DNA from: an uncultured Verrucomicrobiae bacterium
GTDB taxonomy: Bacteria > Verrucomicrobiota > Verrucomicrobiia > Limisphaerales > UBA11358
DNA: 64,000 bases
Reading direction: 5' to 3'
NCBI GenBank assembly: GCA_963830235.1
Contig: CAWHLR010000026.1
Span: 4,792-68,791, forward strand
A model generated the notes under the pieces. That model made no database searches. It had not been told where the DNA came from and saw only the letters and a list, made by a program, of their open reading frames with translations. How positions within the stretch are numbered: the first letter of the stretch is position 1; the number at the start of each line of letters is the position of its first letter. A program made the translations under genes and the position numbers. Positions 3,217-54,167 of this stretch are shown in pieces.

Positions 3217-5559
3217 GTGTGCAGCGCCTCGTCGCCATATCAGGTTGAATCGAATGCCGGGCACGGCCCCGGCGCCACGGAATTGCTCGTCGGCGGCATG
3301 AACTGCAACAATTGCGCGCGGCACGTCACCGAGGCGGTTCAGGGCGTGGCCGGAGTGCGCAGCGCCACGGTGTTGCTCGAAGCCGGCCGCGCATCGGTGC
3401 GCTGGAATTCCGGCGCGGAGCAAAACGTTCCCGCCGTCATCGAGGCCGTTCAGAAGGCCGGCTATACGGCAAAACAAATCCAGCCCGGCCCTTCCGCCGG
3501 TGGCGAATCCAGACACGCCGACTGGCAAATCAATCTCTGGCTCGGCATCACCGTTACTGCCGCGCTGATGGTTGGCGAATGGATTTTCCATCTCGCCATG
3601 AAACCGTGGTTTCAGTGGGTTGCCTTTGCGCTGGCCGGACTGGTGCAGGTCTTTGCCGGGGCAAAATTTTATCGCGGCGCATGGAACCAGCTCAAAATCG
3701 GCAACTCGAACATGGATACGCTCGTCGCGCTCGGTTCGACCACCGCGTTTGGCTACAGCGCGTGGGCTTTGCTGAGCGGTGTGGGCGGCCATCTCTATTT
3801 CATGGAAGCCGCCGCCATCATCACGCTCATCAGTTTCGGCCACTGGATCGAGGCTCGCGTGAGCATGCGCGCGTCGGGCGCGCTGGAAAATTTGCTGAAC
3901 CTCGCGCCGCAAACCGCGCGCCGGATTTCTCAATCCGAAATCCGAAATCCGAAATCCGAAATTGAAGTCCCTGTCGCCGAACTGAAAATCGGCGATCTGG
4001 TCGCGTTGCGCCCCGGCGACCGGGTGCCGGTGGATGGCACGGTGGCCGAAGGCGATTCCGCCGTGGACGAGGCGATGCTCACCGGCGAATCGGCGCCGGT
4101 GGACAAAAAAACCGGCGGCGAACTTTACGCCGGCACGGTGAATTTGAATGGCCAGCTCATCATGCGTGTGACCGCCACCGGCGAAAGCACTGCGCTGGCG
4201 CACATCATCGCCGCCGTGCAACGCGCCCAGACCAGCCGCGCCGATATCCAGCGCCTCGGCGACCGCGTGAGCAGCGTCTTCGTACCGGTCGTCGTCGCCA
4301 TCGCCGTCGCTGCTGCTTTGTGGTGGGGATTCATGCCGGAATCGGCGAAACACATTCACGACCTGCTCGCGCCGTTCCTCTGGCACGTCATGTCTCCGAC
4401 CGGCGCGGCGGCGGGTTTCATCATTGCTGCGGCGGTATTAATTGTGGCGTGTCCGTGCGCGATGGGTCTGGCGACGCCCGCCGCCATCATGGCCAGTGCC
4501 AACACCGCCGCGCGCCGCGGCATTCTGATTCGCGACGGTGTGGCGCTGGAGAAGGCCGGGAAAATCACTGCCGTAATTTTCGACAAGACCGGAACCCTCA
4601 CCCTTGGGAAGCCGGAAGTCGCAGTCATTGGAGCGCCGGTCTCCGACCCGGCGCGTTTCGAAACGATTGATCTTCGAGCCGGGTCGGAGACCGGCGTTCC
4701 AATCGCACAAATCGCCGCAGCGTTGGCGCGTTCCTCGAACCACCCCATCAGCCAGGCGATTGCCAAATTGTCTGCTCAGAACATTGACTTGAAAGACTGG
4801 CAGGAAATTCGCGGCTGTGGCGTTGAGGCCAACATTCAACATTCAACATTCAACATTCAACATCCAATGGGCAAAGCCCGGCTCGGTTCGCTCCGGTGGT
4901 TGAAGGAATCCGGCGTGGATTTGGCGGCAGGTGAAAAATTCATTGCCGAGTGGTCGCAACAGGGCGCAACGATTGTCGGGCTGGCGGTGGAGCAATCGCT
5001 CGCCGGGTTGTTCGCCGTCAAGGACACGGTGAAGCCCGGCGCACACACGGTGGTGGAACAATTGCACCGGCAGAATTTGAAGACGTTTTTGGTGACCGGC
5101 GACAACGCGTTGACCGCCGCCAGCATCGCCCGGCAGGCCGGCATCGCGGCGGAGAACGTCGCCGCCGAAGTGCGACCGGAACAAAAGGCGGAGTTTGTGA
5201 AAAAACTCCAGGCGCAAGGCGAGCGCGTGGCGTTCGTGGGCGACGGCATCAACGATGCGCCGGCGCTGGAGCAGGCCGATCTCGGCATCGCCGTGAGCCG
5301 CGCCAGCGACCTCGCGCGCGAGGCGGCGGACATCATTTTGTTGAAATCGGAAATCGAGGCCGTGCCGGAGGCGCTCGGCCTGGCGCGGGTGACGTTGCGG
5401 ACGATCAAACAGAATTTGTTCTGGGCGTTTTTTTACAACGCGCTGGGCGTGCCGCTGGCCGCGCTGGGTTTCATCAGCCCGATTTTATGCGCGGCAGCGA
5501 TGGGCGTGTCGGACTTGATTGTGATTGGCAATGCGCTGCGGCTTTTGCGGTGGCGCTGA
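3217..5559 (+). CDS. copA: copper/heavy-metal translocating P-type ATPase
   Basis: Contains the GMNCNNC metal-binding motif, TGES, CPC, DKTGT and GDGINDAP. Confidence 0.95.
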   Translation: MCSASSPYQVESNAGHGPGATELLVGGMNCNNCARHVTEAVQGVAGVRSATVLLEAGRASVRWNSGAEQNVPAVIEAVQKAGYTAKQIQPGPSAGGESRHADWQINLWLGITVTAALMVGEWIFHLAMKPWFQWVAFALAGLVQVFAGAKFYRGAWNQLKIGNSNMDTLVALGSTTAFGYSAWALLSGVGGHLYFMEAAAIITLISFGHWIEARVSMRASGALENLLNLAPQTARRISQSEIRNPKSEIEVPVAELKIGDLVALRPGDRVPVDGTVAEGDSAVDEAMLTGESAPVDKKTGGELYAGTVNLNGQLIMRVTATGESTALAHIIAAVQRAQTSRADIQRLGDRVSSVFVPVVVAIAVAAALWWGFMPESAKHIHDLLAPFLWHVMSPTGAAAGFIIAAAVLIVACPCAMGLATPAAIMASANTAARRGILIRDGVALEKAGKITAVIFDKTGTLTLGKPEVAVIGAPVSDPARFETIDLRAGSETGVPIAQIAAALARSSNHPISQAIAKLSAQNIDLKDWQEIRGCGVEANIQHSTFNIQHPMGKARLGSLRWLKESGVDLAAGEKFIAEWSQQGATIVGLAVEQSLAGLFAVKDTVKPGAHTVVEQLHRQNLKTFLVTGDNALTAASIARQAGIAAENVAAEVRPEQKAEFVKKLQAQGERVAFVGDGINDAPALEQADLGIAVSRASDLAREAADIILLKSEIEAVPEALGLARVTLRTIKQNLFWAFFYNALGVPLAALGFISPILCAAAMGVSDLIVIGNALRLLRWR
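3932..3963. repeat. heptanucleotide tandem array (AATCCGA x4) inside copA
   Basis: aatccgaaatccgaaatccgaaatccgaaatt, read in-frame as SEIRNPKSEI. A single complementary unit (cggatttc) sits just upstream. Confidence 0.9.
4634..4696. repeat. REPIN-like perfect inverted repeat inside copA (in-frame, 63 nt)
   Basis: cgccggtctccgacccggc (4634-4652) and its exact reverse complement gccgggtcggagaccggcg (4678-4696). Each arm holds a ggtc-tcc-gacc mini-hairpin. Confidence 0.9.
4831..4865. repeat. heptanucleotide tandem array (AACATTC x4 + AACATCC) inside copA
   Basis: aacattcaacattcaacattcaacattcaacatcc, read in-frame as NIQHSTFNIQHP. Confidence 0.9.
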
Positions 5560-5587: not shown

Positions 5588-8500
5588 TTATTCCTCGCCG
5601 TTGCCGGATTCGGCCTTGCGTTCCCAGCGGCGCGGCGCGCGTTCGGGCAGCGAGGTGTCGACCTTGGCGTAATATGTTTCCTCGCCAAAACGCGCGTCGG
5701 CTTCCTGCTGCAATTTCAACGACGGCATGACGCCGAAACGTTCGTTGGTGTCCATGAAGATGACTTCGCCGCCGGGACGCATGAAACACAGCAGCAACGG
5801 GCATTTGCCCGGATGCGCGGCCACGAGTTCGCGCACGGATTCCAGTTGTTCCGGTTTCAGGTGCGCGGTGTGCAGCCGCAAATGAACCTGTTTGGTGAAT
5901 TTTCTGGGCGCGTCCTCCAGCGGCAGGATTTCCTGCGGAAAAATCTTTGGGCGGTCGTCACCGGTGTTCACTTCGCCGATGACCAGGATGGCTTTGTTCG
6001 GCACGAGCAACGCGCGGTATTTGTCGTAGTTCTCGTTCATGCAAAGAATCTGCACGGAGCCTTCGAGGTCTTCGAGCGTGACCATGGAGTAAGGCTTTCC
6101 GCTTTTCTTTGACACGCCGTTTTGCACCGCCGCAATCAATCCGCCGATGGCCGTCTGGCTGCGATTCGGCAGCTCCGCGAGCTTGGCGGTGTTCGCCAGC
6201 GTGTATTTTTCCAAAATCGGCGCAAACGGCGTCAGCGGATGGCCGGTGACGTAAAAGCCGAGCAGCTCCTTTTCGTGTGCGAGCAACTCATGCTGCGGCC
6301 ATTCGGGCAGGTTGCTGATGGCGTCCGGCATGGGCGGCGCTTTTTCCTCCAGCGCGCCAAAGAGCGAGCTTTGTCCCTTCTGCCGGTCGGAAAGAATGCT
6401 CGCGGCGCGGGCCAGGGTGCGTTCGATTTGCGCGGACAACGTGGCACGCGTCTGGCCGAAGCCGTCGCACGCGCCGGTTTTGATGAGCGCCTCAAGTGTT
6501 TTCCGGTTCACCGTGCGGCCATCCGCGCGCTCGCACAGATCCGAAAGCGAGGTGAATTTTCCGCGTTCGTTCCGGGCTTTCAAAATGGATTCCACCGCGA
6601 CTTCGCCCACGCCCTTGATCGCGGCGAGGCCGAAGCGGATGGCCTTGCCGTCGCGCGCCGGGGCGAAGTGGACCAGGCTCTCGTTCACATCGGGGCCGAG
6701 GACCTCGATGCCGAACGCCCGCGCCTCGTTGATGTACTGGCTCAACTTGGCGGTATCCGCCATGTCGTTGGTCATCATCGCGCAGAAAAATTCGACGGGA
6801 TAATTGGCCTTCAGATAGGCGGTCTGATACGCGACGATGGCGTAGGCGGCGGCGTGCGATTTGTTGAAGCCATAGCCGGCGAACTTTTCCAGCAAATCGA
6901 AAATCTCGTTCGCCTTTTTTTCGGGGATCTGGTTTTTATCCCTGCAGCCCTTGACGAAAATGGCGCGTTGCTTGGCCATTTCCTCCAGCTTCTTTTTGCC
7001 CATGGCGCGCCGGAGCAAATCCGCGCTGCCAAGCGTGAACCCGGCCAGCAACTGGGCGGCCTGCATCACCTGTTCCTGGTAAATCAAAATGCCGTAGGTC
7101 TCGCGCGCAATCGGTTCGAGCAGCGGATGTTCGTATTTGATCTCGATTTCACCGTGGCGACGCTTGATAAATTCAGGAATCAGCTCCATCGGGCCGGGCC
7201 GGTAAAGCGCGACCAAGGCGGTGATGTGTTCAACGGAACTGATTTGAAACTTGCGGCACAAATCGCGCATTCCGCCGGATTCCAACTGGAACACGCCGAG
7301 TGTTTCCGCGCGGTTGAGCAGGTCGTAGGTCTTTTGGTCGTCGAGCGGCAGATGGTCAATCGGCACCTCGATGCCGTGCGTGCGCTTGACCATTTCGCAG
7401 GTGTTGCGGATGACGGTGAGCGTCTTCAGGCCGAGAAAATCCATCTTCAGCAGGCCCAGCTCGCCGACGGGATTCATCGCGTATTGCGTGACGAGCGTGC
7501 CGCTTTCGTCCTGCTTGAGCGGCAGCAAATTCACCAGCGGCTGATCGCCGATGACGACGCCGGCGGCGTGGACGGAGGCGTTGCGCGTGATGTCTTCCAG
7601 GATGAGCGCGGTGTCAATCAATTCGCGCGTGACCTCCTCGGTTTGGTAGGCCTCCTTGAATTCCGGCGACTGCTTGAGCGCCTTCGTCAAATCCATTTTC
7701 AGATCGAACGGAATCATCTTGGCCAGCCGATCGCACTCGCCGTAGCTCAGGCCCATCACGCGGCCCACATCGCGCACGACGGATTTCGCGCCCATCGTGC
7801 CGAACGTGATGATTTGCGCGACGGAATCGCGGCCGTATTTCTCGCGGACATACTCAATGACATCGGCGCGCCGGTCGTCCGCAAAATCAATGTCAATATC
7901 CGGCGGGTTGACGCGCTCGGGATTGAGGAAGCGCTCGAACAGCAGGCCGTAGCGGATCGGGTCCACGTTGGAAATTTCCAGCAGGTAGGTGACGATGGAA
8001 CCGGCGGCGGAACCGCGCGCCACACAAGCAATGCCGTGTTCGTGACCGTACCGGATGAAATCGCCAACAATGAGAAAGTAACTGATGAAACCTGTCTTTT
8101 CGATGACCTTAAGCTCCAGTTGCAGCCGATCCAAAACGGCCTTGATGGCGGCAGCGATGGCGGGGTCTTTTATGTCGTAGCAGCCGACGTGAGGAGGCTC
8201 ATTCTTTTTCTGCCCGGCATCTTCCGAATCTGATTTGAGCCTCGTTACCTCGGCTGCTACGGAAGCATCGAAAGTCGGCAATCGCGTTGGATCGTCAATT
8301 CCCTCGAACGACAAATTCCTTGCCCTCGGCTTTGGCGTGAAGCGTGTAGCGCCGGAGCAATCCTTCCGCAACCAACTTGCGCAAATAACCTTCGCGCGTG
8401 AAATGTTCCGGCGGCGCAAAGACCGGGAAGTGCAATTTGCTGAAATCGATTTCCAGGTTGCACTGCTCAGCGACGGCGAGCGTGTTTTTGACGGCCTCGG

Positions 8501-26004: not shown

Positions 26005-26307
26005 TCAGTCGCCAAACAATTTTTTCAATTGTTCGCGGGCGGCGGCTTCGCGCCGGTTGTCTCCGGCTTTCGGCGTCCAGGCCCGGCGCGCAAATTCAAA
26101 ATACTCGCAGAAATTGCCCAGGTGCTTTTCCATCACCGGCTCGGCCCGCCGTTCGCGGCATTGCTGCGCCACGCGCGGATCGTAATGCGCGCAGTTCAGG
26201 CAGACGCGCAGGTCGGCCCGGCATTTGAAACAGCTTTCGCCGCGTCCGGGCTGGCCGGTCAGCGTCCATTCCTCGCCGCAGTTGTGGCAATGACGGGTCA
26301 AAGACAT
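26005..26307 (-). CDS. zinc-ribbon / Cys-rich small protein
   Basis: CHNCG...CFKC...CLNC...C...FC cysteine pattern in 100 aa. Confidence 0.6.
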   Translation of the reverse strand: MSLTRHCHNCGEEWTLTGQPGRGESCFKCRADLRVCLNCAHYDPRVAQQCRERRAEPVMEKHLGNFCEYFEFARRAWTPKAGDNRREAAAREQLKKLFGD

Positions 26308-26389
26308 TTACGATTTGTGATTTACGATTGACGATGTCACGACACAAAAGATTAACCTCGTAAATCGCCAATCGTAAATCGTAAATTAG
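26305..26389. repeat. heptamer-array hairpin, GATTTAC family
   Basis: catttacgatttgtgatttacgattgacg faces cgtaaatcgccaatcgtaaatcgtaaat. It lies in the divergent intergenic region. Confidence 0.85.
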
Positions 26390-26404: not shown

Positions 26405-28771
26405 ATGAAAAGGGTTCTGGCGCCAATCTTCTGGCTGCTGCTTGCACTGGCCGGCGCGGACGCCTATGCCACGCTGGCGTTTCGCCGGAGCGAGCCGGTC
26501 AATTCAGCCTATATTCTCATCGCGGCGGTCTGCACCTATGCCATCGGCTACCGGTTTTATTCCAAATGGATTGCCGCGCGCGTGCTCACGCTCAATGACC
26601 GCCGCGCCACGCCATGCGAAGTCCACGACGACGGCAAGGATTTCGTGAGAACGAACAAATGGGTTGTCTTTGGCCATCATTTCGCGGCCATTGCCGGGCC
26701 GGGACCGCTGGTCGGGCCGGTGCTGGCGGCGCAATTCGGTTACCTGCCTGGCACACTGTGGATTTTAATCGGCGCCGTGCTCGGCGGCACGGTGCAGGAT
26801 TTCGTCATCTTGTTTTGCTCGATGCGGCGGGATGGCAAATCGCTCGGCCAGATGGTCAAGGAGGAATTGAATTCGCCGGTTGGCTTCATCGCGGGGCTGG
26901 CGATCCTGGCCATTCTGGTGATTATGCTCGCAGTCCTCGCACTCGTTGTGGTCAAGGCTCTCGCGGAAAGTCCGTGGGGTATTTTCACCGTTGGCGCAAC
27001 CATTCCCATCGCGTTGTTGATGGGCTGTTACCTGCGTTTCTTGCGCGTCGGAAAGATTCTGGAAGCCTCAGCCTTTGGTGTTACAATGCTGCTGCTCGCG
27101 GTGTGGGGCGGCAAACTGGTCTATGAAAATCCGCACTGGTCGCAGGTCTTTGGACTGCGCGACCTCACGGTTGCCTGGGTCATCATTGGCTACGGCGTCA
27201 TCTCCAGCAGCCTGCCGGTGTGGCTGCTGCTCGCGCCGCGCGATTACCTCAGCACGTTCATGAAACTCGGCACCATCTTCGCGCTCGCCCTCGGCATCCT
27301 GCTGCTCCTGCCCAATTTGCAAATGCCCGCGCTGACGCAATTCATTGACGGTTCCGGCCTGGTCGTGGCCGGAAAGGTTTTTCCGTTCTGCTTCATCACC
27401 ATCGCGTGTGGCGCGATTTCCGGTTTTCACACGCTCATCGCCAGCGGCACGACGCCGAAACTCATCACTCGTGAAGGTTATGCGCGGCCCATCGGTTATG
27501 GCGCGATGTGCTGCGAATCCTTCGTGGCCATCATAGCGATCATTGCCGCCTGCACCCTGGACCCGGGCGTCTATTTCAGCATGAACGTCAAAGGCGATCC
27601 CGCCGCCACCGTGGCCCTGGTCGCCTCGCATGGTTTTCCGGTGACCACCGGCCAGATGGCTGCGCTGGCCCATGAACTCGGCGAGAAAACCCTGTTCGGT
27701 CGCACTGGTGGCGCGGCCACGCTGGCCGTCGGCATGGCGCACATTTTTTCCAAGGCCGTCAACGGCCGCTGGCTCGACCTCTGGTATCACTTCGCCATCA
27801 TGTTTGAGGCGCTGTTCATCCTGACCACGGTGGACGCCGGCACGCGCGTGGGACGTTATCTGATTCAAAGTGTGCTCGGCCGGGTTTGGAAACCCCTGGG
27901 CGACCCGAAATATTTTCTCACCACACCGGTGGCCGCCGCGTTGATGGTAGGCGCGTGGGGATATTTTTTGATTCAAGGCGTGCGTGATCCGCTCGGCGGC
28001 GTCAACTCGCTCTGGCCGCTGTTTGGTATTGCCAACCAGATGCTTGCCGCCATCGCGTTGTGCCTGGCCACAACCGTCATTTTGAAAATGCAGCTTGGAG
28101 CGTCGGCCTCCGGCACGGCACGAATCGAGAAGCCCGCCGTGCCGGAGGCCGACGCTCCAAAACATTTGCCTGCGCTCGCGCTCATCACGTTCATTCCACT
28201 GGTCTGGCTGGCAGCGGTAACATTCACGGCAGGAGTTGAGAAAATTTTCCATCCCGACCCGCGCATCGGATTTCTGGCGCAGGCGCAAAAGCTGGCTGAA
28301 AAAGCACCCGCCTTGCAAAGTGCGCTCACCAACGCGAACGCTGCGGGTGATGCGGCCGCAATTGACACCGCTCAAATAGCATTGCGCGCCAACCGCACGC
28401 TCCGGTTCAACAACCTTCTCGACGCCGCCGTGGCCGGAATTTTTCTGGCTCTGGTCATCGCGATTGTTCTGTTAAGCTTGCGCGAGTGGATTTTGCTGCT
28501 GTCGCGGCGCAAACCGGCGGTGTTGCACGAAACCGGGCCGGTCTGGCTGCCGGATTACGCCGTCGTGGAGGGCGGGCGCAAGTTCAGCGGCGCGGCCGGC
28601 GCCGCCGCCCTGGCCCTGGCGCTGGCGAAGGAATGGTCCGGCGAATCGCATCTGGAACGCGCGCAGCAGCAGCAAACGCAGGCGGTTTGCCAATGCCATT
28701 CCGCGAACGCACAGCAGGTTTACGTCGAAGCCACGGAACAGCGGTTCAACGGTGTGCGGCGGTGTTGTTAA
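26405..28771 (+). CDS. cstA: carbon starvation protein A family transporter with a YbdD/YjiX-like C-terminal tail
   Basis: Polytopic protein with CstA-like blocks (VVFGHHFAAIAGPGPLVGP, ISGFHTLIASGTTPK). The C-terminus ends in ...EQRFNGVRRCC. Confidence 0.85.
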   Translation: MKRVLAPIFWLLLALAGADAYATLAFRRSEPVNSAYILIAAVCTYAIGYRFYSKWIAARVLTLNDRRATPCEVHDDGKDFVRTNKWVVFGHHFAAIAGPGPLVGPVLAAQFGYLPGTLWILIGAVLGGTVQDFVILFCSMRRDGKSLGQMVKEELNSPVGFIAGLAILAILVIMLAVLALVVVKALAESPWGIFTVGATIPIALLMGCYLRFLRVGKILEASAFGVTMLLLAVWGGKLVYENPHWSQVFGLRDLTVAWVIIGYGVISSSLPVWLLLAPRDYLSTFMKLGTIFALALGILLLLPNLQMPALTQFIDGSGLVVAGKVFPFCFITIACGAISGFHTLIASGTTPKLITREGYARPIGYGAMCCESFVAIIAIIAACTLDPGVYFSMNVKGDPAATVALVASHGFPVTTGQMAALAHELGEKTLFGRTGGAATLAVGMAHIFSKAVNGRWLDLWYHFAIMFEALFILTTVDAGTRVGRYLIQSVLGRVWKPLGDPKYFLTTPVAAALMVGAWGYFLIQGVRDPLGGVNSLWPLFGIANQMLAAIALCLATTVILKMQLGASASGTARIEKPAVPEADAPKHLPALALITFIPLVWLAAVTFTAGVEKIFHPDPRIGFLAQAQKLAEKAPALQSALTNANAAGDAAAIDTAQIALRANRTLRFNNLLDAAVAGIFLALVIAIVLLSLREWILLLSRRKPAVLHETGPVWLPDYAVVEGGRKFSGAAGAAALALALAKEWSGESHLERAQQQQTQAVCQCHSANAQQVYVEATEQRFNGVRRCC

Positions 28772-28778
28772 AAAATTT

Positions 28779-29341
28779 GGAGGGCACTGCTTCGTCAGTG
28801 CCCCAACTAAATTAAATTGATGCGGGAATTGCAATCAAACGGAGAAATCGGGCGTAAACATCCCGTTCACCAGCCCGTTTTTCAACAGGGCAATCAAGCG
28901 GTTATTGTCTTTGTCACAGTCAATGCCCACCAACGAAAACCCATCCTTGCCAAAACAGATGTGGCAAACATTGTTCTCACCACGTGGGAGCAGGCTGACA
29001 CGTGGCTGGTTGGACGTTATGTCATCATGCCCGACCACATTCACTTTTTTTGCGCACCGCGTGATGTGTCGGTAAACTTGAAGCGTTGGATGAAGTTCTG
29101 GAAGAGCCAGGTTTCTTTGCGCTGGCCGCGATCCGCCGAACAGCCCGTCTGGCAGCTTGATTTTTGGGACACGCAATTGCGTCGCGGCGAGAGTTATTCG
29201 GAGAAATGGGATTATGTTTGTCGAAACCCCGTGCGAAAAGGCCTTGCGGCAAGGCCGAAAGATTGGCCTTATGCAGGCGAATTGAATGTCCTGTCCTGGC
29301 ACGACAAATGAAATTAGGGCACTGACGAAGCAGTGCCCTCC
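28779..29341 (+). mobile_element. RAYT-like unit: Y1/HUH transposase gene bracketed by perfect inverted hairpin REPs
   Basis: ggagggcactgcttcgtcagtgccc (28779-28803) and its exact reverse complement (29317-29341). Each is itself a hairpin (gggcactg/cagtgccc). Confidence 0.85.
28817..29311 (+). CDS. IS200/Y1-type (REP-associated-like) tyrosine transposase
   Basis: HUH motif MPDHIHFFCAP and Tyr motif WDYVCRNPVRKGL. About 160 aa. Confidence 0.75.
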   Translation: MMRELQSNGEIGRKHPVHQPVFQQGNQAVIVFVTVNAHQRKPILAKTDVANIVLTTWEQADTWLVGRYVIMPDHIHFFCAPRDVSVNLKRWMKFWKSQVSLRWPRSAEQPVWQLDFWDTQLRRGESYSEKWDYVCRNPVRKGLAARPKDWPYAGELNVLSWHDK

Positions 29342-29346
29342 AAAAT

Positions 29347-29923: not shown

Positions 29924-30003
29924 TCGTCCTCCTCCTCGTCCTCGTTCTCGTAATCGAAATTGAACAATCGAGGACGATGGACGAGGACGAGAACGAGGAG
30001 GAT
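29924..30003. repeat. GAGGACG-type periodic repeat with partially complementary arms
   Basis: tcgtcctcctcctcgtcctcgttctcgtaatcg ... atcgaggacgatggacgaggacgagaacgaggaggat. The arm register is imperfect. Confidence 0.6.
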
Positions 30004-35461: not shown

Positions 35462-35483
35462 TCGTCCCGCAGGGACAACCGAG

Positions 35484-35632
35484 AATAGCCCGCAGTTTCA
35501 ACTGCGGGTTTTGATGCCATAAAAATCACAAGCCCCGGAGGGGCGGATCGAATCTGCAACGATTTTGTCTGCCGCCCCTCCGGGGCTTGATTGATATTGG
35601 GCTGTTACCCGGCGTTGAAACGCCGGGCTATT
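35484..35632. repeat. three-hairpin structured element, copy 1
   Basis: agcccgcag-tttcaa-ctgcgggtt; agccccggaggggcgg...ccgcccctccggggct; tacccggcg-ttgaaa-cgccgggcta. Confidence 0.8.
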
Positions 35633-35658
35633 GTCGGTCGTCGCTCTGCGACTACAAT

Positions 35659-36669
35659 TCAACCCGCCGTCAGCCGGATGATTTCACGCAATGGCGTGCG
35701 CGGGCGGAACTTCACGCAGCGTTCCAGCTTTTTCACCAGCGGTTTGCGGCGGCGCATGTCGTCAAATTCCGGCGCACCGGTGACCCCGGAGCTTTTTGGC
35801 ACCGGCCCATAAGCTTTGGCATACGGCACGAGTTGAATCTTCGATTTTGAATCCAGCGTTTTCACCACGAGCCGGCCCAGTTTGAGGATGCTGACTTCCT
35901 CCGTGCCGCCCACATTGAAAATTTCGCCGCGCGCCTTCGGACAATTTTGCAGCCGCACCAGCGCCTCCACCGCGTCGCCGACGTGGCAGAAACACCGCGT
36001 TTGCGCGCCGTCGCCGAAAACTTTGAGCGGTTCGCCCTTTTTCGCCGCTGCGATGAACCGGGGCAGCACCATGCCGTAGCGGCCGGTCTGGCGCGGGCCG
36101 ACGGTGTTGAACAGCCGCGCGATGATGACCGGCAGCGACTTTTCCCGCGCATAAGCCAGCGCCAGAAATTCGTCGGTGAGCTTCGAGCACGCGTAGCTCC
36201 AGCGCGATTGTCCGGGCGGCCCAATGAGCAAATCATCATCCTCGCCGAACGCCGGCTTCGCGCTCTTGCCATAGACCTCCGAAGTTGAAGTCAACAGCAG
36301 CGGTGTGCGTCTGGTCGTGGCGGCCCGCAACAAGATTTGGGTCTCGTGAAAACTAGATTCCAAAACGCTCAACGCCGATTTCACCACCAGTTCAACGCCC
36401 ACCGTCGCTGCCAGATGAAAGATGAACTCCGCGTTCGCCGCCAGCTTCGGCAGTTCACGGCACGCGGATATTTTCGATTGAATCACGAGCAGCCGCCGAT
36501 GCGATTTGACCGCGCGCAAATTTTCCAGGCTGCCCGTGGAAAGATCGTCAATGACGACAACCGTTTTGCCATCGGCCAGCAATCGTTCGACGAGGTGCGA
36601 CCCGATGAAACCCGCGCCGCCGGTGACAAGGATGTGCGAGGATGAAGGATGGAGGATGGAGGATGGCAT
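35659..36669 (-). CDS. NAD-dependent sugar epimerase/dehydratase (SDR family)
   Basis: VTGGAGFIGSHL Rossmann motif and the YACSK catalytic motif. Confidence 0.85.
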   Translation of the reverse strand: MPSSILHPSSSHILVTGGAGFIGSHLVERLLADGKTVVVIDDLSTGSLENLRAVKSHRRLLVIQSKISACRELPKLAANAEFIFHLAATVGVELVVKSALSVLESSFHETQILLRAATTRRTPLLLTSTSEVYGKSAKPAFGEDDDLLIGPPGQSRWSYACSKLTDEFLALAYAREKSLPVIIARLFNTVGPRQTGRYGMVLPRFIAAAKKGEPLKVFGDGAQTRCFCHVGDAVEALVRLQNCPKARGEIFNVGGTEEVSILKLGRLVVKTLDSKSKIQLVPYAKAYGPVPKSSGVTGAPEFDDMRRRKPLVKKLERCVKFRPRTPLREIIRLTAG

Positions 36670-36681
36670 TCTCGTTTTGTT

Positions 36682-37785
36682 TCACCGCAGCGCGTCCGCG
36701 ACGGCTTCCGCGAGTTTCTGGCGGAAATCCGGGCTTTCGATCAACTTGGCCTCGCGGGGATTGGACATGAAGCCGCCTTCAATCAAAATCGCCGGGCGGT
36801 TTTGTCCGCGCAGAACCGTATCGAATCGCGAATGGCTGACGCCGCGATCGTCCAAGCCCGTTGCGCGTGACAATGCGCTTTGGACGCGGACGGCGAGTTG
36901 AAGGTTTTGCGCGTCATAAGTGTTGTTGGGAAAAACCAGCGACCAGCTATCGGGATAACCGCGCGTCAACGTGGACGGCATGCCGGCGGGCGTAATGCAA
37001 TAGGTTTCCAGGCCGCCGGGCTTTTTATCGCGATCAGACGTGGAATTGAAATGCAGGCTGATGAACAGATCAGCGTGATGCGCCTCGGCGAAAACGACCC
37101 GGTCCAGATTCGACACGGTTATATCGCTGGTGCGCGTCAAAAACACCTGCCAGCCCTCCTGTTCGAGCAGCGGCGCGAGCCGTTTCGCCCAGTCGAGCGT
37201 GAATTCTTTTTCAAACCGGCCGTCGAGAACGCTGTGGGTGCCGACGTTGGAGCCGCCATGGCCGGGATCAATCACGATGACGCGATTGCCAAAGGTCAGC
37301 GGCGGCCCGAGCAGCAGCGGCTCAATATTCTTCTGCAAATCCACGCCATGAACGAAAACCTGGTCGTCAATGAATTCCGGGGCGAAACCAAGATTGACCA
37401 CCGTGTCGTTCCAGGCCGCTTCGCGGCTGCCGATTTCCAAAGCCATCGTGCCGTTCGGCGAACTCACCGCATACGCGGCCACGGGCGTGTCGGACAACCG
37501 CTGCGGCGCGCTGATTTTGTTTTCGGCGGCCCAGCGGTTGAGTGAAGTCCACGTCGTCACCGGCGCGGCGGACGTTGGATTGGATCCTGGCGGTATGGTG
37601 TCACCGGCCCGAATGACCGTGCGCGCGGGGAATTTTTTAGCGGCGTTGGTGTCCGTCCAGTTGAACGAGGACGCTCCAGCGGACCGGGCGGCGACGAAAT
37701 GGTTTCTTTCCGGAATGGTGGGTGTGGAGGAACACCCCGCCAGGAGAATCGCCGCGCCGACAATGATGGCCGCTCGTTTGAACAT
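36682..37785 (-). CDS. N-acetylmuramoyl-L-alanine amidase (Amidase_3 type)
   Basis: Signal/lipobox-like N-terminus (LLAGCSS) and VIVIDPGHGG...DLFISLHFNS...IEGGFMSNPRE. Confidence 0.85.
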   Translation of the reverse strand: MFKRAAIIVGAAILLAGCSSTPTIPERNHFVAARSAGASSFNWTDTNAAKKFPARTVIRAGDTIPPGSNPTSAAPVTTWTSLNRWAAENKISAPQRLSDTPVAAYAVSSPNGTMALEIGSREAAWNDTVVNLGFAPEFIDDQVFVHGVDLQKNIEPLLLGPPLTFGNRVIVIDPGHGGSNVGTHSVLDGRFEKEFTLDWAKRLAPLLEQEGWQVFLTRTSDITVSNLDRVVFAEAHHADLFISLHFNSTSDRDKKPGGLETYCITPAGMPSTLTRGYPDSWSLVFPNNTYDAQNLQLAVRVQSALSRATGLDDRGVSHSRFDTVLRGQNRPAILIEGGFMSNPREAKLIESPDFRQKLAEAVADALR

Positions 37786-37830: not shown

Positions 37831-37902
37831 CATTTGCGATTTACGATTTGCGATTGACGCGTCCTCTGCCATTTACTCGTAAATCGTATATCGTGAATCG
37901 CC
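37831..37902. repeat. heptamer-array hairpin, GATTTAC family
   Basis: catttgcgatttacgatttgcgattgacg faces tttactcgtaaatcgtatatcgtgaatcgcc. Confidence 0.85.
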
Positions 37903-37967: not shown

Positions 37968-38525
37968 TTGAAAATTTTGATTGCCATTACCGGGGCCAGC
38001 GGCGCGCTTTATGCCCAGCGCCTGCTCGACAATCTCGACCCGAGCACGCACGAAATCCACGTCGTGCTCAGCAACTACGCGCCGCAGGTCATCGCCGGGG
38101 AACTGCCCGGCGGCCTGCGCCTGCCCGATGGCGTCAAGACGCACAGCATCAAAAGCATGAACGCGCCGTTCGCCAGCGGCTCGAACCCGCCGGATGCCAT
38201 GGTGGTCATTCCCTGCACGATGGGCACGATGGGCCGCATTGCGCATGGTTACAGCGAGGATGTTTTGCTGCGCGCGGCGGACGTGGTGCTGAAGGAGCGG
38301 AAAAAACTGATTTTGGTCCCGCGCGAGACGCCGCTCAGTCTGGTGCATGTCAAAAACATGGAACTGCTGCTGCTGGCGGGCGCGGTGATTCTGCCGGCGA
38401 ACCCAAGTTTTTATGCGGGTCCCAAAACGATCCAGGAAGTGGTGGATACCGTGGTCGCCCGTGTGCTGGATCATCTCGGCGTGCCGAACCAGCTCGCGCC
38501 GCGCTGGAGTGAGGAAAAGGAGTAA
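37968..38525 (+). CDS. ubiX: flavin prenyltransferase UbiX family (TTG start inferred)
   Basis: (M)KILIAITGASGALYAQRLL...VIPCTMGTMGRIAHG...LILVPRETPL. Confidence 0.85.
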   Translation: MKILIAITGASGALYAQRLLDNLDPSTHEIHVVLSNYAPQVIAGELPGGLRLPDGVKTHSIKSMNAPFASGSNPPDAMVVIPCTMGTMGRIAHGYSEDVLLRAADVVLKERKKLILVPRETPLSLVHVKNMELLLLAGAVILPANPSFYAGPKTIQEVVDTVVARVLDHLGVPNQLAPRWSEEKE

Positions 38526-38538
38526 AATGCGAAAAAGG

Positions 38539-39066
<528 letters not shown>

Positions 39067-39073
<7 letters not shown>

Positions 39074-39963
39074 TCTTAATTAAAAAGTGGGCTTCCTTCG
39101 TGCGCTTCCCGCACACGGTCTTCGCGCTGCCGTTCGCGCTGGCGGCGATGGCTGTGGCGGCGCGGGACAATCGCGGCTGGCCGGGTTGGAAAACTTTCGC
39201 GCTGATCCTCGCGGCCATGGTCTGCGCGCGCACCTGTGCCATGGCATTCAACCGAATCGCCGATCGCAAATTCGACGCGTTGAATCCGCGCACGGCCAGC
39301 CGCCACCTGCCCACCGGCCAGATTTCTTTGTTCAGCGCCTGGCTGCTTTGCCTGTTGAGCGGCGTCGGTTTGATAGCGGCCAGCTTCTTTCTGAATCCGC
39401 TGTGTTTTTACCTCTCGCCCGTTGCGCTGGTGGTGATTTGTTTTTATTCACTGACGAAGCGGTTCACGGATTACACGCACGTTTTTCTCGGCCTCGCGCT
39501 CGCGCTCGCGCCCGTGGGCGCGTGGCTGGCGGTGAAAGGAACGAATGTTTCGATATTGGAAATCTTGCAAATGACCATGCTCGCGCTGGCGGTTATGCTG
39601 TGGCTCGTCGGCTTCGACATCATTTACTCGCTACAGGATTACGAGTTCGACAAATCGCATGGCCTGCATTCGCTCGTCGTGGCGTGGGGACAAAAGAATG
39701 CTCTCCAAGCGGCGTTTCTCGCGCATATGGTCATGTGCGGCCTGCTGCTGGCGTTCGGTTTGCTCTGCCGGTTTCGCATCGCGTATCTCGTCGGCTGGAT
39801 GATCATCGTCGGCTGCCTGGTGCTGGAACATTGGATTGCCCGCCGCCGCAGCCTGAACTGGATCAACGTCGCGTTCTTCCGGCTCAACGCCGTTGTGAGC
39901 GCCGTTTTTTTAATCGTGACGGTGGCGGAAGTGGTGTTTCAGGGTGGGTTTCGGCTGCGTTGA
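39067..39963 (+). CDS. ubiA: UbiA-family aromatic prenyltransferase
   Basis: Polytopic protein with the NRIADRKFD Asp-rich motif and a second DxxxD-like motif (DIIYSLQDYEFD). Confidence 0.8.
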
Positions 39964-39965
39964 TT

Positions 39966-40070
39966 GGGGCAAAACATCGAACATCCAACATCGAACGCTG
40001 AACATCGAACGCTTGTTGAAAATGCCCCGATTCGATGTTGGGAGTTCGATGTTCGATGTTCAGCGTTTCC
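39966..40070. repeat. GAACATC-heptamer inverted pair without cargo
   Basis: ggggcaaaacatcgaacatccaacatcgaacgctgaacatcgaacgc ... gccccgattcgatgttgggagttcgatgttcgatgttcagcgtttcc. Confidence 0.8.
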
Positions 40071-40529
40071 GATTAAGTATTTTGGTAACATCCGTCGTGA
40101 TTTGCTTCTGAGTTGGGTGTATGAGTGGCATCCAAGTGACCCCGTCAGACAACCCGAAATGTCCGCAATGCGGCACGCCGCTGCCGGCCGGCGCGCTCGC
40201 CGGCCTTTGCCCCGCCTGCCTGCTGAAACAGGGCGCGGCCGACGAAACCGCCACGGGCGGGCAGACGCCGCCGTTCCAGCCGCCATCCATCGCCGAACTG
40301 GCGCCGTTGTTCCCGCAGCTCGAAATTCTTGAACTCATTGGCAAGGGCGGCATGGGCGCGGTCTATAAGGCGCGGCAAAAGGAACTGGATCGCTTTGTCG
40401 CGCTGAAAATTCTTCCGCCGGGCATCGGCCGCGACGCCGCCTTCGCCGGGCGTTTCGCGCGCGAAGCCAGGGCGCTCGCGAAGCTGAATCACCCGGGCAT
40501 CGTCACGCTTTACGAGTTTGGGCAGGTCG

Positions 40530-40610
40530 GTAGTGGCACAGGCGTCCCGCCTGTGAGTGTCGGAGAAACCGCAAACGAGAAACTCACAGGCAAGATGCCT
40601 GTGCCACTAT
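40530..40610. repeat. REPIN doublet (GTGGCAC family) in-frame inside the kinase (81 nt)
   Basis: GTAGTGGCACAGGCGTCCCGCCTGTGAGT faces ACTCACAGGCAAGATGCCTGTGCCACTAT. It is translated as GSGTGVPPVSVGETANEKLTGKMPVPL. Confidence 0.85.
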
Positions 40611-40848
40611 TTTATTTCCTCATGGAATTCGTGGATGGCGTGAACCTGCGGCAATTGCTTCACGCCGGCCGCATCGCGCCGCGCGAGGCGCTGGCCATTG
40701 TGCCGCAAATTTGCGACGCGCTTCAGTTCGCGCATGATCAGGGCATCGTCCATCGCGACATCAAGCCGGAAAATATTTTGCTGGACTGCCGCGGCCGCGT
40801 GAAGGTGGCGGATTTTGGGCTGGCAAAACTGGTGGGGGTAGATGCGTT

Positions 40849-40909
40849 GGAGTTCCGCCTTCAGGCGGTTCCGACGCGACAAACCCGGACCGGCTGAAGC
40901 CGGAACTCC
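40849..40909. repeat. 61-nt palindromic element that disrupts the kinase frame
   Basis: ggagttccg-ccttcagg-cgg...ccggctgaagccggaactcc. The outer 9-bp arms are ggagttccg/cggaactcc, and there is an in-frame TGA inside. Confidence 0.85.
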
Positions 40910-42434
40910 AAACCCCCGCCTTGACCGCCGCCGGCAAGGTCATGGGCACGCCGAATTACATGGCGCCGGAACAGATGGAACATCCGGATGCCGTGGACAA
41001 TCGCGCGGACATTTACGCGCTGGGCGTGGTGTTTTACCAGATGCTCACCGGCGAACTGCCCGGCAAACAACTCCAGCCGCCGTCGTCGAAAGTTCAAATT
41101 GACGTGCGGCTGGATGAAGTCGTGCTGCGCGCGTTGGAAAAGAAACCTGAACTTCGCTACCAACAGGTCAGCGTGTTCAAGACGCAAATCGAAACGATCT
41201 CCCAAACTTCGCCGGCGGGAAATGCGCCGACAATTTCAGAAAAGCATCATCCAGCGCCCTGGAGCCAAGGGCTTGTTCTCGCGTCATTGTTGTGCATGGG
41301 TGCGTGCCTGTGGCCGGCGTTTGAGTTGTTCAAGCAGGGCGGCGGCTCCTCACTTCTGGTGGGATCGCTGTTGGTGGCGTTAACCATCGTGTGCGCTCTT
41401 TTTGCCATCCGTGGTTACACCATCACAGCCGATGCCATTCTCATTCACCGCTTGTTTTGGGCGACCCGACTGCCGCTCGCCGGACTGAAGTCTGCCCGTT
41501 TCGAAATAGCTGCCACGCGATGGGGCATTCGCGCCGGCAACGGCGGTTTCTTTTCCTGCACCGGATTCCGTTATAACCGACTGCTGGGTTTTCACCGTGT
41601 GTTTGTTACCGACGGAGCTCGAACCGTGGTGCTGCGCTACGCCAACCGCACCGTGGTCATTTCACCCGCCGACCCCGAAGCCTTTGTCCGCGACCTCGCC
41701 ATTCCAATGAAGGCAATGACGTGGGATGAGCAAGCACGCGTCAACGAAGCGGAGTGGCAAAACCCGGTCAATTGGACCGGACCGAAATGGCTGTCGGTTT
41801 ATTTCAGCAAACGCGATTCGCGCGCGTGGGTGCCGAAACAAATTCCCGCTTTGGGCTCGACGGTAAACCTGGGAAATCCGCAAGGCGCGTTCGCGCTGCT
41901 GGCCATCGTCAGCGCAATCATCATTGCCTTGGTTGTCCTGGCCGTTGTGCTGCTGGCGGTTTTCAAACCTGTCCACCCCAATTCGATCAGGTCGGATTAC
42001 ATCGGCCAAACCTGGTTTCCCAAAGGCGATTCCATTGAAATAACCTCGGTTGAGCGGACCGAGAAGCGGATGGTGGTCAAAGGCCATTACAATCTGGTAA
42101 GCCATGATCAGGCGACGCTGGCGCTTTACATCACTTCGACCAATAAAAATCTTCCAGAAGACAAGGAACAGCGGATGCAAATTTCCAAAGGACGCGGCGA
42201 TTTTGAATTGGTTCATTCCCATGTTATTCCCGGTCTTCCGCATGTGGTGATGGATGCCAACGGAGAAAATATTGCCAACCTGTATTTTGGAACCCAGGCC
42301 GAATCGCTGGAAGAAAGCAAGGCCAGTTGGAACTCGGGTGCCAACCAAATTGGTGAGGAGCCGGGCAAAATGGCGGCGCCCCTCAAATTCCCCCGCCGAT
42401 CAAAACCATTGTCCTGACGCGGGCGACGAATCAG

Positions 42435-44013: not shown

Positions 44014-44081
44014 ATTTCTTTTGTCAAAGACGTGCGTGCGAACATTTGTGAAACGATTTAAATCGCGGAGCGACGGACGAT

Positions 44082-44232
44082 AATAGCCCACGGTAAAACC
44101 GTGGGTTCAACGAACAAAATAAAACCAGCCCCGGCAGGGGCGGCAGAAAACATACGAACGGTTTTATCTGTCGCCCCTGCCGGGGCTTGTGATTTTTGTC
44201 CGACCAACCCACGGCTGACGCCGTGGGCTACT
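44082..44232. repeat. three-hairpin structured element, copy 2
   Basis: agcccacgg-taaaa-ccgtgggtt; agccccggcaggggcggcaga...tctgtcgcccctgccggggct; aacccacggc-tgac-gccgtgggcta. Confidence 0.8.
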
Positions 44233-44370
44233 TTCTGCCGCCTCCGGCGCTGAACGCGCAATTTGCCAAGCGGCAACTGACTTGGTTCCGCGCCCGGAAA
44301 ATCCAGAGTGGATTGAATTGAAGCCGGAGGAATCGCTGGAAAGATGTGCGCAGAAAATTTGTGAAACGAT

Positions 44371-49249: not shown

Positions 49250-49974
49250 TGGCTGAAGCGAGTTCATCACCGGAAAAAACGGGCCCGCCGGCCAGGAAAA
49301 GAAAATCCGGCGTGATTGTGCCGCACCAGGCGAAGTGGCATCAACGCATCGGCGCGTTTTTGGTGTTCATTTCGTTGCGCACGCTCATGGCCACAGTGCG
49401 CTGCCGTCTGCGCAACCCCTCGGAATTCCTGGCGCCCAACGCCCCCGGCCCGGTGATTGTTTGTTTCTGGCACAACCGGCTGGCGTCCTGCATCAAAGTT
49501 TATGAGAGCTTTCGCAAGCCGCACGCGTCCACCAGGGGCATGGCGGCGCTGATCAGCGCCAGCCGGGACGGCGCGTTTCTCACGGGCATTCTGGAATGGT
49601 TTGGCGTGCAGGCGGTGCGCGGATCCAGCAGCCGGCGCGGCCCGCAGGCGTTGCTCGAACTCACCACCTGGGCCGAGCGCAACTATGACCTGACCATCAC
49701 GCCGGACGGCCCGCGGGGGCCGTGCTACCAGTTTCAGGAGGGCGTGATGTCGCTGGCACAGGTAACGGGTTTGCCGGTGATGCCGATTGCGTTCAACGTG
49801 AATTGGAAACTGCGCGTGAAAAGCTGGGACCGGTTTCAGATTCCGCTGCCCTTTGCCTGTTGTGAAGTCGTCGTCGGCAAGGTCATGCGCGTGCCAGCCG
49901 AAGCCACGGACGCCGAACGCGAGTCGCTGCGTCAACAGCTTGAAGCCGACCTGCGCGCCATTTCCGGCGATTGA
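49249..49974 (+). CDS. DUF374-type lysophospholipid acyltransferase family protein
   Basis: CFWHNRL...ISASRDGAFLTGILEWFGVQAVRGSSSRRG...ITPDGPRGP. Confidence 0.7.
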   Translation: MAEASSSPEKTGPPARKRKSGVIVPHQAKWHQRIGAFLVFISLRTLMATVRCRLRNPSEFLAPNAPGPVIVCFWHNRLASCIKVYESFRKPHASTRGMAALISASRDGAFLTGILEWFGVQAVRGSSSRRGPQALLELTTWAERNYDLTITPDGPRGPCYQFQEGVMSLAQVTGLPVMPIAFNVNWKLRVKSWDRFQIPLPFACCEVVVGKVMRVPAEATDAERESLRQQLEADLRAISGD

Positions 49975-50001
49975 AATTCGGAGGGGCGTCACGGTTCTTG
50001 A

Positions 50002-50033
50002 CACTCAACTTCCAACCCTCAACCCTCAACTCC
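50002..50033. repeat. CTCAACC-type heptamer array just upstream of the priA start
   Basis: cactcaacttccaaccctcaaccctcaactcc, preceded by TTGACA at 49998-50003. Confidence 0.6.
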
Positions 50034-50035
50034 GC

Positions 50036-53537: not shown

Positions 53538-54095
53538 TTACGCCATTTTAATTCCCCTTTGCCACAGATCGAAGTGATATAGCGCAACGACGACAAGGGG
53601 GTGGCTGATTTTTTCGTCAGCGACGAGTTTCGTCACTTCCGACACCGGCACGAGGCGCGTTGACAGATCCTCGCCGTGATCGAATTCCACGCCGTGCTTC
53701 AAGCGGCAGTTTTCAATCAGCACGGTGTAAGTTTTGTTGCTCAAGATGGCCGGGTTTGACCAGATCTGTCCAAGCAGGCGCGCGTTCCCGCCTTCGTAGC
53801 CGGTCTCCTCGCGCAACTCGCGCACGGCGGTCGCCACCGGGTCGGTCTCGCCCGGGTCCATCATGCCGCCGGGAATTTCGAGTTCCACTGTGTTCGAGCC
53901 GTGGCGGTATTGCTCCACCATCACCAGTTTTTGGTCGGGCGTCACGGCGACGACGTTGACCCAGTTGACGCTTTCAAGGACGTAAAAATCATGTTCCTTG
54001 CCGGTGCGCGGCGAGATTTTTACATCCGAGCGCAGCTTGAAGATGCGGAAATCGCCGACGAGCTTCGAACTGATTTGTTTCCAGGGCTTAACCAT
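53538..54095 (-). CDS. NUDIX hydrolase (ADP-ribose pyrophosphatase-like)
   Basis: Nudix box GGMMDPGETDPVATAVRELREETGY. Confidence 0.85.
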   Translation of the reverse strand: MVKPWKQISSKLVGDFRIFKLRSDVKISPRTGKEHDFYVLESVNWVNVVAVTPDQKLVMVEQYRHGSNTVELEIPGGMMDPGETDPVATAVRELREETGYEGGNARLLGQIWSNPAILSNKTYTVLIENCRLKHGVEFDHGEDLSTRLVPVSEVTKLVADEKISHPLVVVALYHFDLWQRGIKMA

Positions 54096-54166: not shown

Positions 54167-54167
54167 T

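Follow-up and report, generated by a model that had tools for sequence, protein, structure and literature searches.

The 64,000-nt stretch of DNA analysed here (hereafter the window), from an uncultured Verrucomicrobiae bacterium (GenBank assembly GCA_963830235.1), carries three hairpins whose arms are inverted arrays of GATTTAC-type heptamers. These inverted arrays are real, and their architecture and shared repeat units place them in a larger class of elements; the dynamics, a link to cargo genes and tolerance inside open reading frames (ORFs) were demonstrated as well. The explanation that we favour, and to which we give about an even chance, is that the GATTTAC hairpins represent the ORF-less form of a family of heptamer-armed stem-loops resembling the intervening sequences (IVSs) of rRNA genes, the full-length form of which brackets a PF05635 gene. 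In this family, both arms would consist of a short tandem repeat, in most cases of 7 nt, arrayed in opposite orientations. The three hairpins are located as follows.

Site 1: 26305-26387, no strand assigned, GATTTAC hairpin with left arm 26305-26333, loop 26334-26358 and right arm 26359-26387.
Site 2: 37831-37900, no strand assigned, GATTTRC hairpin with left arm 37831-37859 and right arm 37877-37900.
Site 3: 54093-54168, no strand assigned, GATTTAC hairpin with inverted-repeat arms 54094-54126 and 54135-54167.

At all three sites the left arm consists of about four (N)ATTTRC-type heptamers and ends in GATTKACG, and a spacer of 17-25 nt separates it from complementary CGTAAAT units on the right. 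Specifically, site 1 reads CATTTAC GATTTGT GATTTAC GATTGAC G, followed by a 25-nt spacer and C GTAAATC GCCAATC GTAAATC GTAAAT; site 2 reads CATTTGC GATTTAC GATTTGC GATTGAC G, followed by a spacer of ∼18 nt and C GTAAATC GTATATC GTGAATC; and site 3 combines CATTTTC GATTTAT GATTTAC GATTTAC G (54093-54121) with GTCAATC GTAAATC TTAAATC GAAAAT (54140-54168). Tandem Repeats Finder (TRF) detected a period of 7 in all six arms, with 3.4-4.3 copies, and the arms of the GATTTAC hairpins were 81-91% complementary over 32-33 nt. The anatomy given in a preliminary description of this DNA, namely degenerate heptamers in the left arm and their complement in the right, was thus borne out by direct reading of the sequence and by TRF. 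All three sites folded on both strands into stems of 25-33 bp at -24 to -39 kcal/mol (z-scores of -3.2 to -9.2), and none of 200 shuffled sequences was as stable. Furthermore, when counted against composition within the window, the 15-mer GATTTACGATTTACG with up to three mismatches gave 19 matches where 1.26 were expected, a number equalled in none of 100 shuffles; 17 of these 19 matches were inside the three sites. No Rfam family reached its gathering threshold at the hairpins, and the sole overlap in a permissive search was with a plant miRNA model (26.7 bits against a threshold of 80). A sigma-70 promoter scan of the three sites found none, and an intrinsic-terminator scan predicted none at any hairpin, the AT-rich stems having no T-run. 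A candidate promoter inside the hairpin (TTGACG-N19-GTAAAT, with its spacing kept in five relatives at site 2) was rejected, as it matches the -10 element poorly and was not supported by the promoter scan.

A full-length form is present in the same window, next to a UbiX-type gene.

38535-39077, plus strand: full-length element, with (AACATCG)n at 38535-38578 and (CGATGTT)n at 39034-39077 around a PF05635 ORF at 38600-39031.

The ORF encodes a 143-aa protein of the four-helix-bundle (4HB) family named '23S rRNA IVS protein' (PF05635, E = 5.7e-11), the closest solved structure being 2RLD. The arms of the element are 97% complementary over a core of 30 nt and 82% over the full 44 nt. In 13 relatives a 4HB gene lies between ubiX and ubiA, and inverted heptamer arrays were found around all of those that could be examined. 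Across 12 loci, three unit classes changed jointly on both sides of the gene (AACATCG/CGATGTT, AACATTC/GAATGTT and AACCTTG/CAAGGTT). Left and right arms from the same locus or the same class matched at 21.5-21.75 of 24, compared with 18.7 of 24 for arms of different classes. In relatives without the 4HB gene, the space between ubiX and ubiA held repeat-armed hairpins of other kinds, built of 10-mer, 8-mer or AATCCGA units. A further gap, between ubiA and a kinase gene, was occupied in three ways among the compared loci (designated L plus a number): L121 carries a PF13366 PD-(D/E)XK gene between inverted arrays, L132 has an empty hairpin of the L121 type, and the window has the following cargo-less hairpin.

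39972-40068, no strand assigned: AACATCG/CGATGTT hairpin without cargo, in the ubiA-kinase gap, with the variant unit AACGCTG in common with the 4HB element.

Overall, a flanking inverted repeat of at least 17/20 was detected for 13 of 19 cargo genes and for none of 300 random segments. The PF13366 (PD-(D/E)XK, GxxExxY) genes of L147 (1464-1901) and L121 (2232-2603) are small, wedged between host genes and provided with inverted short-repeat arms, and the one in L147 adjoins a ubiX-type gene; in these respects they behave like a second kind of cargo. As a separate observation, window positions 39800-40200, which run from the last part of ubiA through the AACATCG hairpin into the kinase gene, are 98-100% identical to L120, compared with 85% over the whole alignment of 5 kb. 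Recent recombination probably produced this tract; an identity peak specific to the hairpin was rejected, as the peak runs into both flanking genes.

The association of heptamer arrays with 4HB genes extends across phyla. A 15-mer scan over 596 Gb of genomes returned mostly chance-level single matches. Chance alone would give about 2,000 of these in that amount of sequence, and we therefore left them aside and used only loci with multiple tandem or inverted matches. Such loci were found in Acidobacteriota, Bacteroidota, Chloroflexota, Armatimonadota, Desulfobacterota and cyanobacteria. A multi-phylum set of 119 loci (L001-L119) contained 38-39 heptamer hairpins and five 4HB genes, four of them directly against GATTTAC/CGTAAAT-type arrays (L003, L077, L084 and L100). 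GATTTAC arms lie on both sides of the 4HB gene in Armatimonadota (L003), Anaerolineales (L077) and Planktothrix (L158); in Bacteroidota (L084, L100) they are next to it. With a strict pair detector, the multi-phylum loci yielded two long-gap pairs, neither with recognisable cargo, against 39 hairpins; the 4HB cases were recovered by profile search. In addition, a plasmid sample that was not chosen on repeats contained eight 4HB genes, from Anabaena, Nostoc, Aulosira, Planktothrix, Pseudanabaena, Chlorohelix, Bernardetia and Treponema. Short tandem arrays flanked all eight, with heptamer units in seven and a clearly inverted arrangement across the gene in six, and the units on the Planktothrix plasmid were GATTTAC and GATTTGG. 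When four 40-kb neighbourhoods (160 kb) were inspected, 9 of 21 period-7 arrays fell within the ∼2% of sequence that adjoins a 4HB gene. In the literature that could be searched, we met no general account of heptamer arrays bracketing 4HB genes, and this cross-phylum coupling appears to be undescribed in its general form. Two further observations were made in these samples. Some of the plasmid 4HB genes and their arrays are wedged into defence operons, either between cas2 and cas1 or beside cas1 (L154, L160), or between the genes for a helicase and a DNA methylase (L155, L158). Among multi-phylum hairpins with an adjacent long ATG-initiated ORF, the gene is on the right in 14 cases and on the left in three despite the symmetry of the hairpin, possibly by chance.

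The closest known parallel is the IVS of 23S rRNA. In Coxiella this IVS is described as a selfish element whose S23p ORF is preceded by two or three strain-variable GACAGAT heptamers and whose 28-bp terminal stem is cut by RNase III (PMC4990558). S23p is described there, with reference to Lin 2006, as a pentameric four-helix-bundle protein (PMC4990558), and PF05635 resembles Avd, a nucleic-acid-handling protein of diversity-generating retroelements (DGRs; PMC10053308). In common with the IVSs of Coxiella burnetii and Leptospira, the full-length element has an S23p/PF05635 ORF closed by terminal inverted repeats, and the window arms (32-44 nt, 81-97% complementary) and stems (25-33 bp) match the IVS stem of ∼28 bp. 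The heptamers of strain-variable copy number just upstream of the IVS ORF are a further likeness. Short ORF-less IVSs exist in rRNA beside ORF-bearing ones, and the hairpins without cargo in our material parallel them. A PF05635 ORF is found in the loop at 38535-39077 and in GATTTAC-armed elements of other phyla, but not at the three sites, where the loops measure 8-25 nt. Unlike these IVSs, the window elements are located between or within protein-coding genes instead of in 23S helix 25 or 45 (no rRNA was found in the window), and both of their arms consist entirely of heptamer arrays.

The three hairpins are part of a larger set of short-repeat arrays. In the window and its verrucomicrobial relatives period 7 dominated, with 79 arrays as compared with 3, 12, 17 and 21 for periods 5, 8, 9 and 10, respectively; in the window alone there were nine period-7 runs versus 0-4 for the other periods. 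The 64 kb, with a G+C content of 58%, contain 14-18 period-7 arrays of nine unit types, the further units including AACATCG, AATCCGA, CAACATT, GAGGATG, GACTTCG and AATGACT, and at least seven repeat-armed hairpins. The arrays and hairpins not yet listed are these.

62253-62388, no strand assigned: hairpin of AATGACT-unit heptamers in an intergenic gap, -48.5 kcal/mol.
57926-57992, no strand assigned: hairpin of degenerate GACTTCG units, upstream of where yacP probably starts.
29924-30003, no strand assigned: hexamer-armed hairpin TCGTCC/CGAGGA, -51 kcal/mol.
36638-36666, minus strand: (CCATCCT)n array in epimerase codons 2-10, directly after the ATG.
3932-3962, plus strand: (AATCCGA)4.4 array, in frame in a P-type ATPase ORF.
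4830-4867, plus strand: (CAACATT)5.4 array, in frame in a P-type ATPase ORF.

In the ATPase orthologue of L118 the codon positions of both arrays are kept and the units differ, (ATCGGCA)4 standing for AATCCGA and (AACTCCG)5 for CAACATT. These L118 arrays are located at 4921-4950 and 5852-5895, and the first sits in a 108-nt insertion with a flanking inverted repeat of its own. Among the epimerase relatives, six have no array and start with ATGAAA...KHILVTGG, and four carry (CCATCCT)n after the ATG. Taken together with the comparisons of the three sites given below, these alignments show that arrays are tolerated both before and after a start codon.

The genes around the three sites are the following.

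26005-26307, minus strand: conserved Cys-rich 100-aa protein, the ATG of which is the last triplet of the site 1 hairpin.
26405-28771, plus strand: cstA (PF02554, E = 7e-223), 17 nt right of the site 1 hairpin.
36682-37785, minus strand: N-acetylmuramoyl-L-alanine amidase, left neighbour of site 2, with its start 45 nt from the hairpin.
37968-38525, plus strand: UbiX-type flavoprotein (PF02441), right neighbour of site 2.
53538-54095, minus strand: NUDIX hydrolase, with its ATG flush with the site 3 hairpin (start CAT 54093-54095).
54168-54362, minus strand: conserved 64-aa ORF, the stop codon of which overlaps the far end of the site 3 hairpin.

According to the preliminary description, the left arms of sites 1 and 3 lie flush with minus-strand start codons. 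The lengths of homologues support this at both sites: the Cys-rich protein has 1082 homologues, mostly of 98-100 aa, in agreement with a start codon at 26305-26307, and the NUDIX homologues measure 185-187 aa. The coordinate at site 3, however, is 54093 and not 54096 as had been given. The same description named cstA and ubiX as the plus-strand neighbours of sites 1 and 2, and the PF02554 and PF02441 matches confirmed both. The site 1 hairpin occupies 83 of the 97 nt between the divergent start codons. At site 3, the hairpin exactly spans the 72-nt gap from the stop codon of the 64-aa ORF, which is also called in L146 and L148, to the NUDIX ATG. Site 2 lies within a 182-nt divergent spacer between the amidase gene and ubiX and does not abut a real start codon, since the CAT at 37831 opens an ORF of only five codons. 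A Shine-Dalgarno (SD)-like 4-mer at positions -20 to -4 was present in 2 of 44 confident window genes, the start regions being simply A/T-rich. Several genes look leaderless or begin at overlapping ATGA junctions in relatives.

The closest match at the DNA level was a Verrucomicrobiae metagenome-assembled genome (MAG) with ∼80% nt identity, and the relatives at the protein level were Verrucomicrobiota from soil, peat and freshwater metagenomes. Comparison of orthologous loci shows positional persistence of the elements combined with rapid turnover, loss and replacement. At site 2, a GATTTRC hairpin is common to the window, L120, L121, L123 and L139. The differences between these five sequences are 7-nt indels, so that unit number varies between orthologues, and in three of the five the right arm is cut to one or two units. 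The start-proximal blocks on both sides are nearly invariant, and the hairpin is therefore the fastest-changing part of the site 2 spacer. At the same spot, L124, L133 and L141 have a CGTCCT-type hexamer hairpin instead, of the type seen at 29924-30003, and L125 and L126 have a third hairpin type; L127 has a direct array only, and L129, L131 and L135 have a short empty spacer. In the alignment of the five GATTTRC sequences 85% of the cells pair, with one compensatory pair only, and formal covariation in this alignment was not above that of shuffles. Two other candidate features of site 2 were discarded: a conserved loop (CTCCGCCAT) is less conserved than the flanks, and the frame of a small ORF starting in the loop is shifted by the 7-nt indels. 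At site 3, the GATTTAC hairpin of L146 differs in its unit variants and its loop, and L148 has a CCAGAAT/ATTCTGG hairpin, both spanning exactly the distance from stop codon to ATG. At site 1, a GATTTAC hairpin is flush with the small gene's ATG in L152 and L153 (…ATCGTAA|ATG), one arm is left in L149 and L150, and L151 retains a remnant only. Because L153 keeps the hairpin without cstA, the site 1 hairpin goes with the small gene.

These comparisons also bear on function. The three hairpins are not a peculiarity of the loci of cstA and ubiX, given that elements of the same class occur inside ORFs and around a 4HB gene, that the site 1 hairpin follows the small gene and that the site 2 hairpin is the fastest-evolving part of its spacer, with a different hairpin or none in other relatives. 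Neither a leader hairpin linked to cstA or ubiX as a specific function nor a dedicated regulator of these genes is supported.

Heptamer arrays at gene starts have precedents in other bacteria. The preliminary description likened the hairpins to the short tandemly repeated repetitive sequences (STRRs) of filamentous cyanobacteria. This comparison holds. In both cases tandem heptamer units are dispersed over many loci; they draw on a limited unit vocabulary, are mostly intergenic and can overlap start codons. STRRs sometimes lie within genes or structured RNAs (Vioque 1997, as cited in PMC2858038), and a heptamer array overlaps the recO start codon in Nostoc (bioRxiv 10.1101/2022.06.06.494920). 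The 4HB genes of Nostoc, Aulosira and Anabaena in our sample were flanked by heptamer arrays; the searchable STRR literature contained no link to 4HB genes. In contrast to the STRRs of heterocystous cyanobacteria, the arrays described here are from a verrucomicrobial host, have units (GATTTAC, AACATCG and others) that are not canonical STRR units, and are paired as dyads. TAACTGA heptamers, in 2-6 copies, lie a few nucleotides upstream of start codons, mostly without a ribosome-binding site (132 of 170 sets; PMC4679880), which resembles the start-proximal position of sites 1 and 3 in an SD-less genome. They occur patchily as direct repeats in Beggiatoaceae, Cyanobacteria and Bacteroidetes and have been suggested to act post-transcriptionally (MacGregor 2015, PMC4679880). 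The TAACTGA arrays are direct and oriented, with 1 of 170 sets inverted (PMC4679880), whereas the window arrays are dyad-symmetric. The experimental precedent for a start-proximal heptamer-armed hairpin is hmw1A of Haemophilus influenzae, in which a transcribed upstream (ATCTTTC)n tract forms one arm of a long hairpin in the 5′ untranslated region (5′ UTR); RNase III cleavage of this hairpin raises expression, and hairpin and RNase III are both needed for changes in repeat number (PMC12721329). It differs from the present hairpins in being a single contingency locus with a G-rich, non-repeat right arm, at least 11 repeats and a role in adhesin phase variation.

If the three hairpins are the ORF-less form of an IVS-like family, the elements would be selfish or nearly neutral DNA that is tolerated wherever no gene is broken, and in an SD-less genome the tolerated positions could extend as far as the start codon itself. 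Wherever the elements are transcribed, RNase III may cut their stems of 25-33 bp, by analogy with the Coxiella 23S IVS and the Haemophilus hmw 5′ UTR. Such cleavage would divide transcripts at the borders between genes, and the ATG would then be preceded by a short single-stranded leader, rich in A and U and suited to SD-independent initiation. Changes in the number of 7-nt repeats would arise from slippage within the arms.

Several points weigh against this explanation. A GATTTAC-armed 4HB gene was not seen in this genome or in the verrucomicrobial relatives, the link being made via other phyla, and cargo-bearing pairs were rare in the multi-phylum sample (2 long-gap pairs versus 39 hairpins). 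As the loops are unrelated, the three hairpins are not copies of one mobile sequence. A strand-specific stability test (G.U versus A.C) was null, with the sense strand stabler in 13 of 20 cases and a mean difference of -0.9 kcal/mol, and because site 2 has one compensatory pair only, no RNA-level selection was shown. Finally, the persistence of position over 57-93% protein identity could indicate a host function.

An alternative that we consider unlikely is that the hairpins are gene-specific cis-regulatory leaders whose stem sequesters the start region of the small-protein and NUDIX genes. Expression would then depend on melting of the stem, on its cleavage by RNase III or, in the case of site 3, on translational coupling, in which a ribosome terminating on the 64-aa ORF opens the stem base and frees the ATG, and changes in unit number would serve as a tuning or phase-variation knob. 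Hairpins indeed directly abut verified ATGs, both at sites 1 and 3 and in the orthologous loci L146, L148, L152 and L153, and the stop-to-start geometry of site 3 is kept in three lineages despite the differing hairpin sequence. Moreover, an ATG-ORF starts at most 12 nt from one of the ends in 13 of 26 verrucomicrobial hairpins versus 15% of random placements, and hmw1A (PMC12721329), the TAACTGA repeats (PMC4679880) and the Nostoc heptamers at start codons (bioRxiv 10.1101/2022.06.06.494920) would be precedents. Part of this closeness to start codons, however, would arise with any element of 80 nt that occupies a short gap between genes, and site 2 is without contact to a real start codon. 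The genes that carry the hairpins are unrelated, the site is empty or reduced to a single arm in some relatives, the same arrays are also present within ORFs, and neither covariation nor strand bias was found.

It is rather unlikely that the hairpins are a mere by-product at the DNA level, produced by replication slippage in AT-rich start-proximal DNA together with quasi-palindrome (template-switch) correction, without function and without a real relationship to 4HB genes. Such a process would fit the indels in 7-nt steps, the independent decay of the arms, the stability without strand bias and the hairpin being the least conserved part of the site 2 spacer, as well as the units that are one or two substitutions apart at the same codon position of orthologous ATPases. 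It leaves unexplained why 7 nt dominates, why unlinked loci and distant phyla have the same units, why arrays are concentrated ∼20-fold beside 4HB genes and why arms co-vary across 460 nt.

An improbable alternative is that the heptamer is a putative DNA- or RNA-protein binding unit, with pentameric 4HB/S23p, S1 or cold-shock-type proteins as candidate partners. The typical number of four or five units per array, the homopentameric state given for 4HB proteins by PMC4990558 on the basis of Lin 2006, their relationship to Avd (PMC10053308) and the physical linkage of 4HB genes to arrays would agree with this, as would the S1 or cold-shock-type protein that MacGregor proposed for the TAACTGA repeats (PMC4679880). 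One genome nevertheless contains many unit sequences and the window a single 4HB gene, and arrays of 16-18 units exist.

Small intergenic palindromes such as the repetitive extragenic palindromic (REP) sequences and bacterial interspersed mosaic elements (BIMEs), the Correia elements and the Rickettsia palindromic elements (RPEs) are often RNase III substrates or stability determinants, and RPEs insert in frame in ORFs. These families conserve the sequence of the whole element, whereas here only the repeat unit is common and both loops and unit order vary. Mobilisation of REP-like or miniature inverted-repeat transposable elements (MITEs) by a Y1 transposase related to IS200 or to REP-associated tyrosine transposases (RAYTs), or an origin as intrinsic terminators, is very improbable and largely refuted: although the window has one Y1_Tnp-like ORF with inverted repeats inside PriA (E = 4.5e-7) and a second, sub-threshold one (28817-29311, E = 0.008), the inverted repeats around these ORFs are GC-rich and bear no relation to the heptamer arms, no GATTTAC arms were found beside the ORFs as they would be in a REPIN-RAYT system, the GATTTAC copies have unrelated loops without common internal sequence, no target-site duplication was visible at the one filled/empty pair inspected (site 2), the cargo is a 4HB protein and not a transposase, and the AT-rich stems are followed by no T-tract, with no terminator predicted at them.

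Other palindromic features were also recorded in the window. In PriA (49940-52978) the Y1_Tnp (IS200/RAYT-like) match is an in-frame insert of ∼200 aa at 50672-51277 with 41-nt inverted repeats on both sides (TGTAGCACCCGCG…); the orthologue in L146 has 808 aa and no insert, and that in L148 has 1030 aa and a faint Y1_Tnp match. The second ORF (28817-29311), of 164 aa and atypical codon usage, lies within 28776-29344 and is bracketed there by 38-nt inverted repeats, each with its own palindrome (GGGCACTG…CAGTGCCC). GC-rich palindromes are present inside coding genes, among them those for the ATPase, cstA, the kinase and PriA, at 4627-4703, 8176-8261, 28095-28160, 40531-40609, 40847-40911 and 52690-52781, several of them of the form TTGGAGCG…CGCTCCAA. 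Alignments with relatives are interrupted at 4619-4741 and in the region of 40500-40600, which suggests in-frame palindromic insertions resembling the RPEs of Rickettsia. In addition, the Rfam motif Acido-Lenti-1 RNA occurs as two inverted pairs, 35463-35508 (minus strand) with 35608-35653 (plus strand), the copies of which form 78% complementary arms, and 44061-44105 (minus strand, sub-threshold) with 44208-44251 (plus strand). This 'sRNA' motif (small RNA) may be the end of another palindromic element.

Returning to the IVS-like family, a wider proposal is conceivable that we put forward tentatively and regard as doubtful in this strong form. Heptamer stem-loops and PF05635 (S23p/Avd-like) genes might constitute one widespread, previously unrecognised IVS-like composite element in mRNA space, in which the pentameric 4HB protein would bind the arrays or help to generate and spread them; the STRR-type repeats would have their source in this element, and solitary boundary hairpins would be its footprints. 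The proposal spans at least seven sampled phyla, namely Verrucomicrobiota, Cyanobacteriota, Bacteroidota, Chloroflexota, Armatimonadota, Spirochaetota and others. To our knowledge, STRR and TAACTGA-type heptamers have been known for decades without an agreed origin or function, and the S23p/four-helix-bundle proteins of rRNA IVSs likewise have no accepted explanation. If the coupling of arrays to 4HB genes proves general, the puzzles of the heptamer repeats and of S23p would become one testable system. In practical terms, the elements alter the calling of start codons and add in-frame peptide insertions to enzymes, and in SD-poor bacteria they likely fragment operon transcripts.

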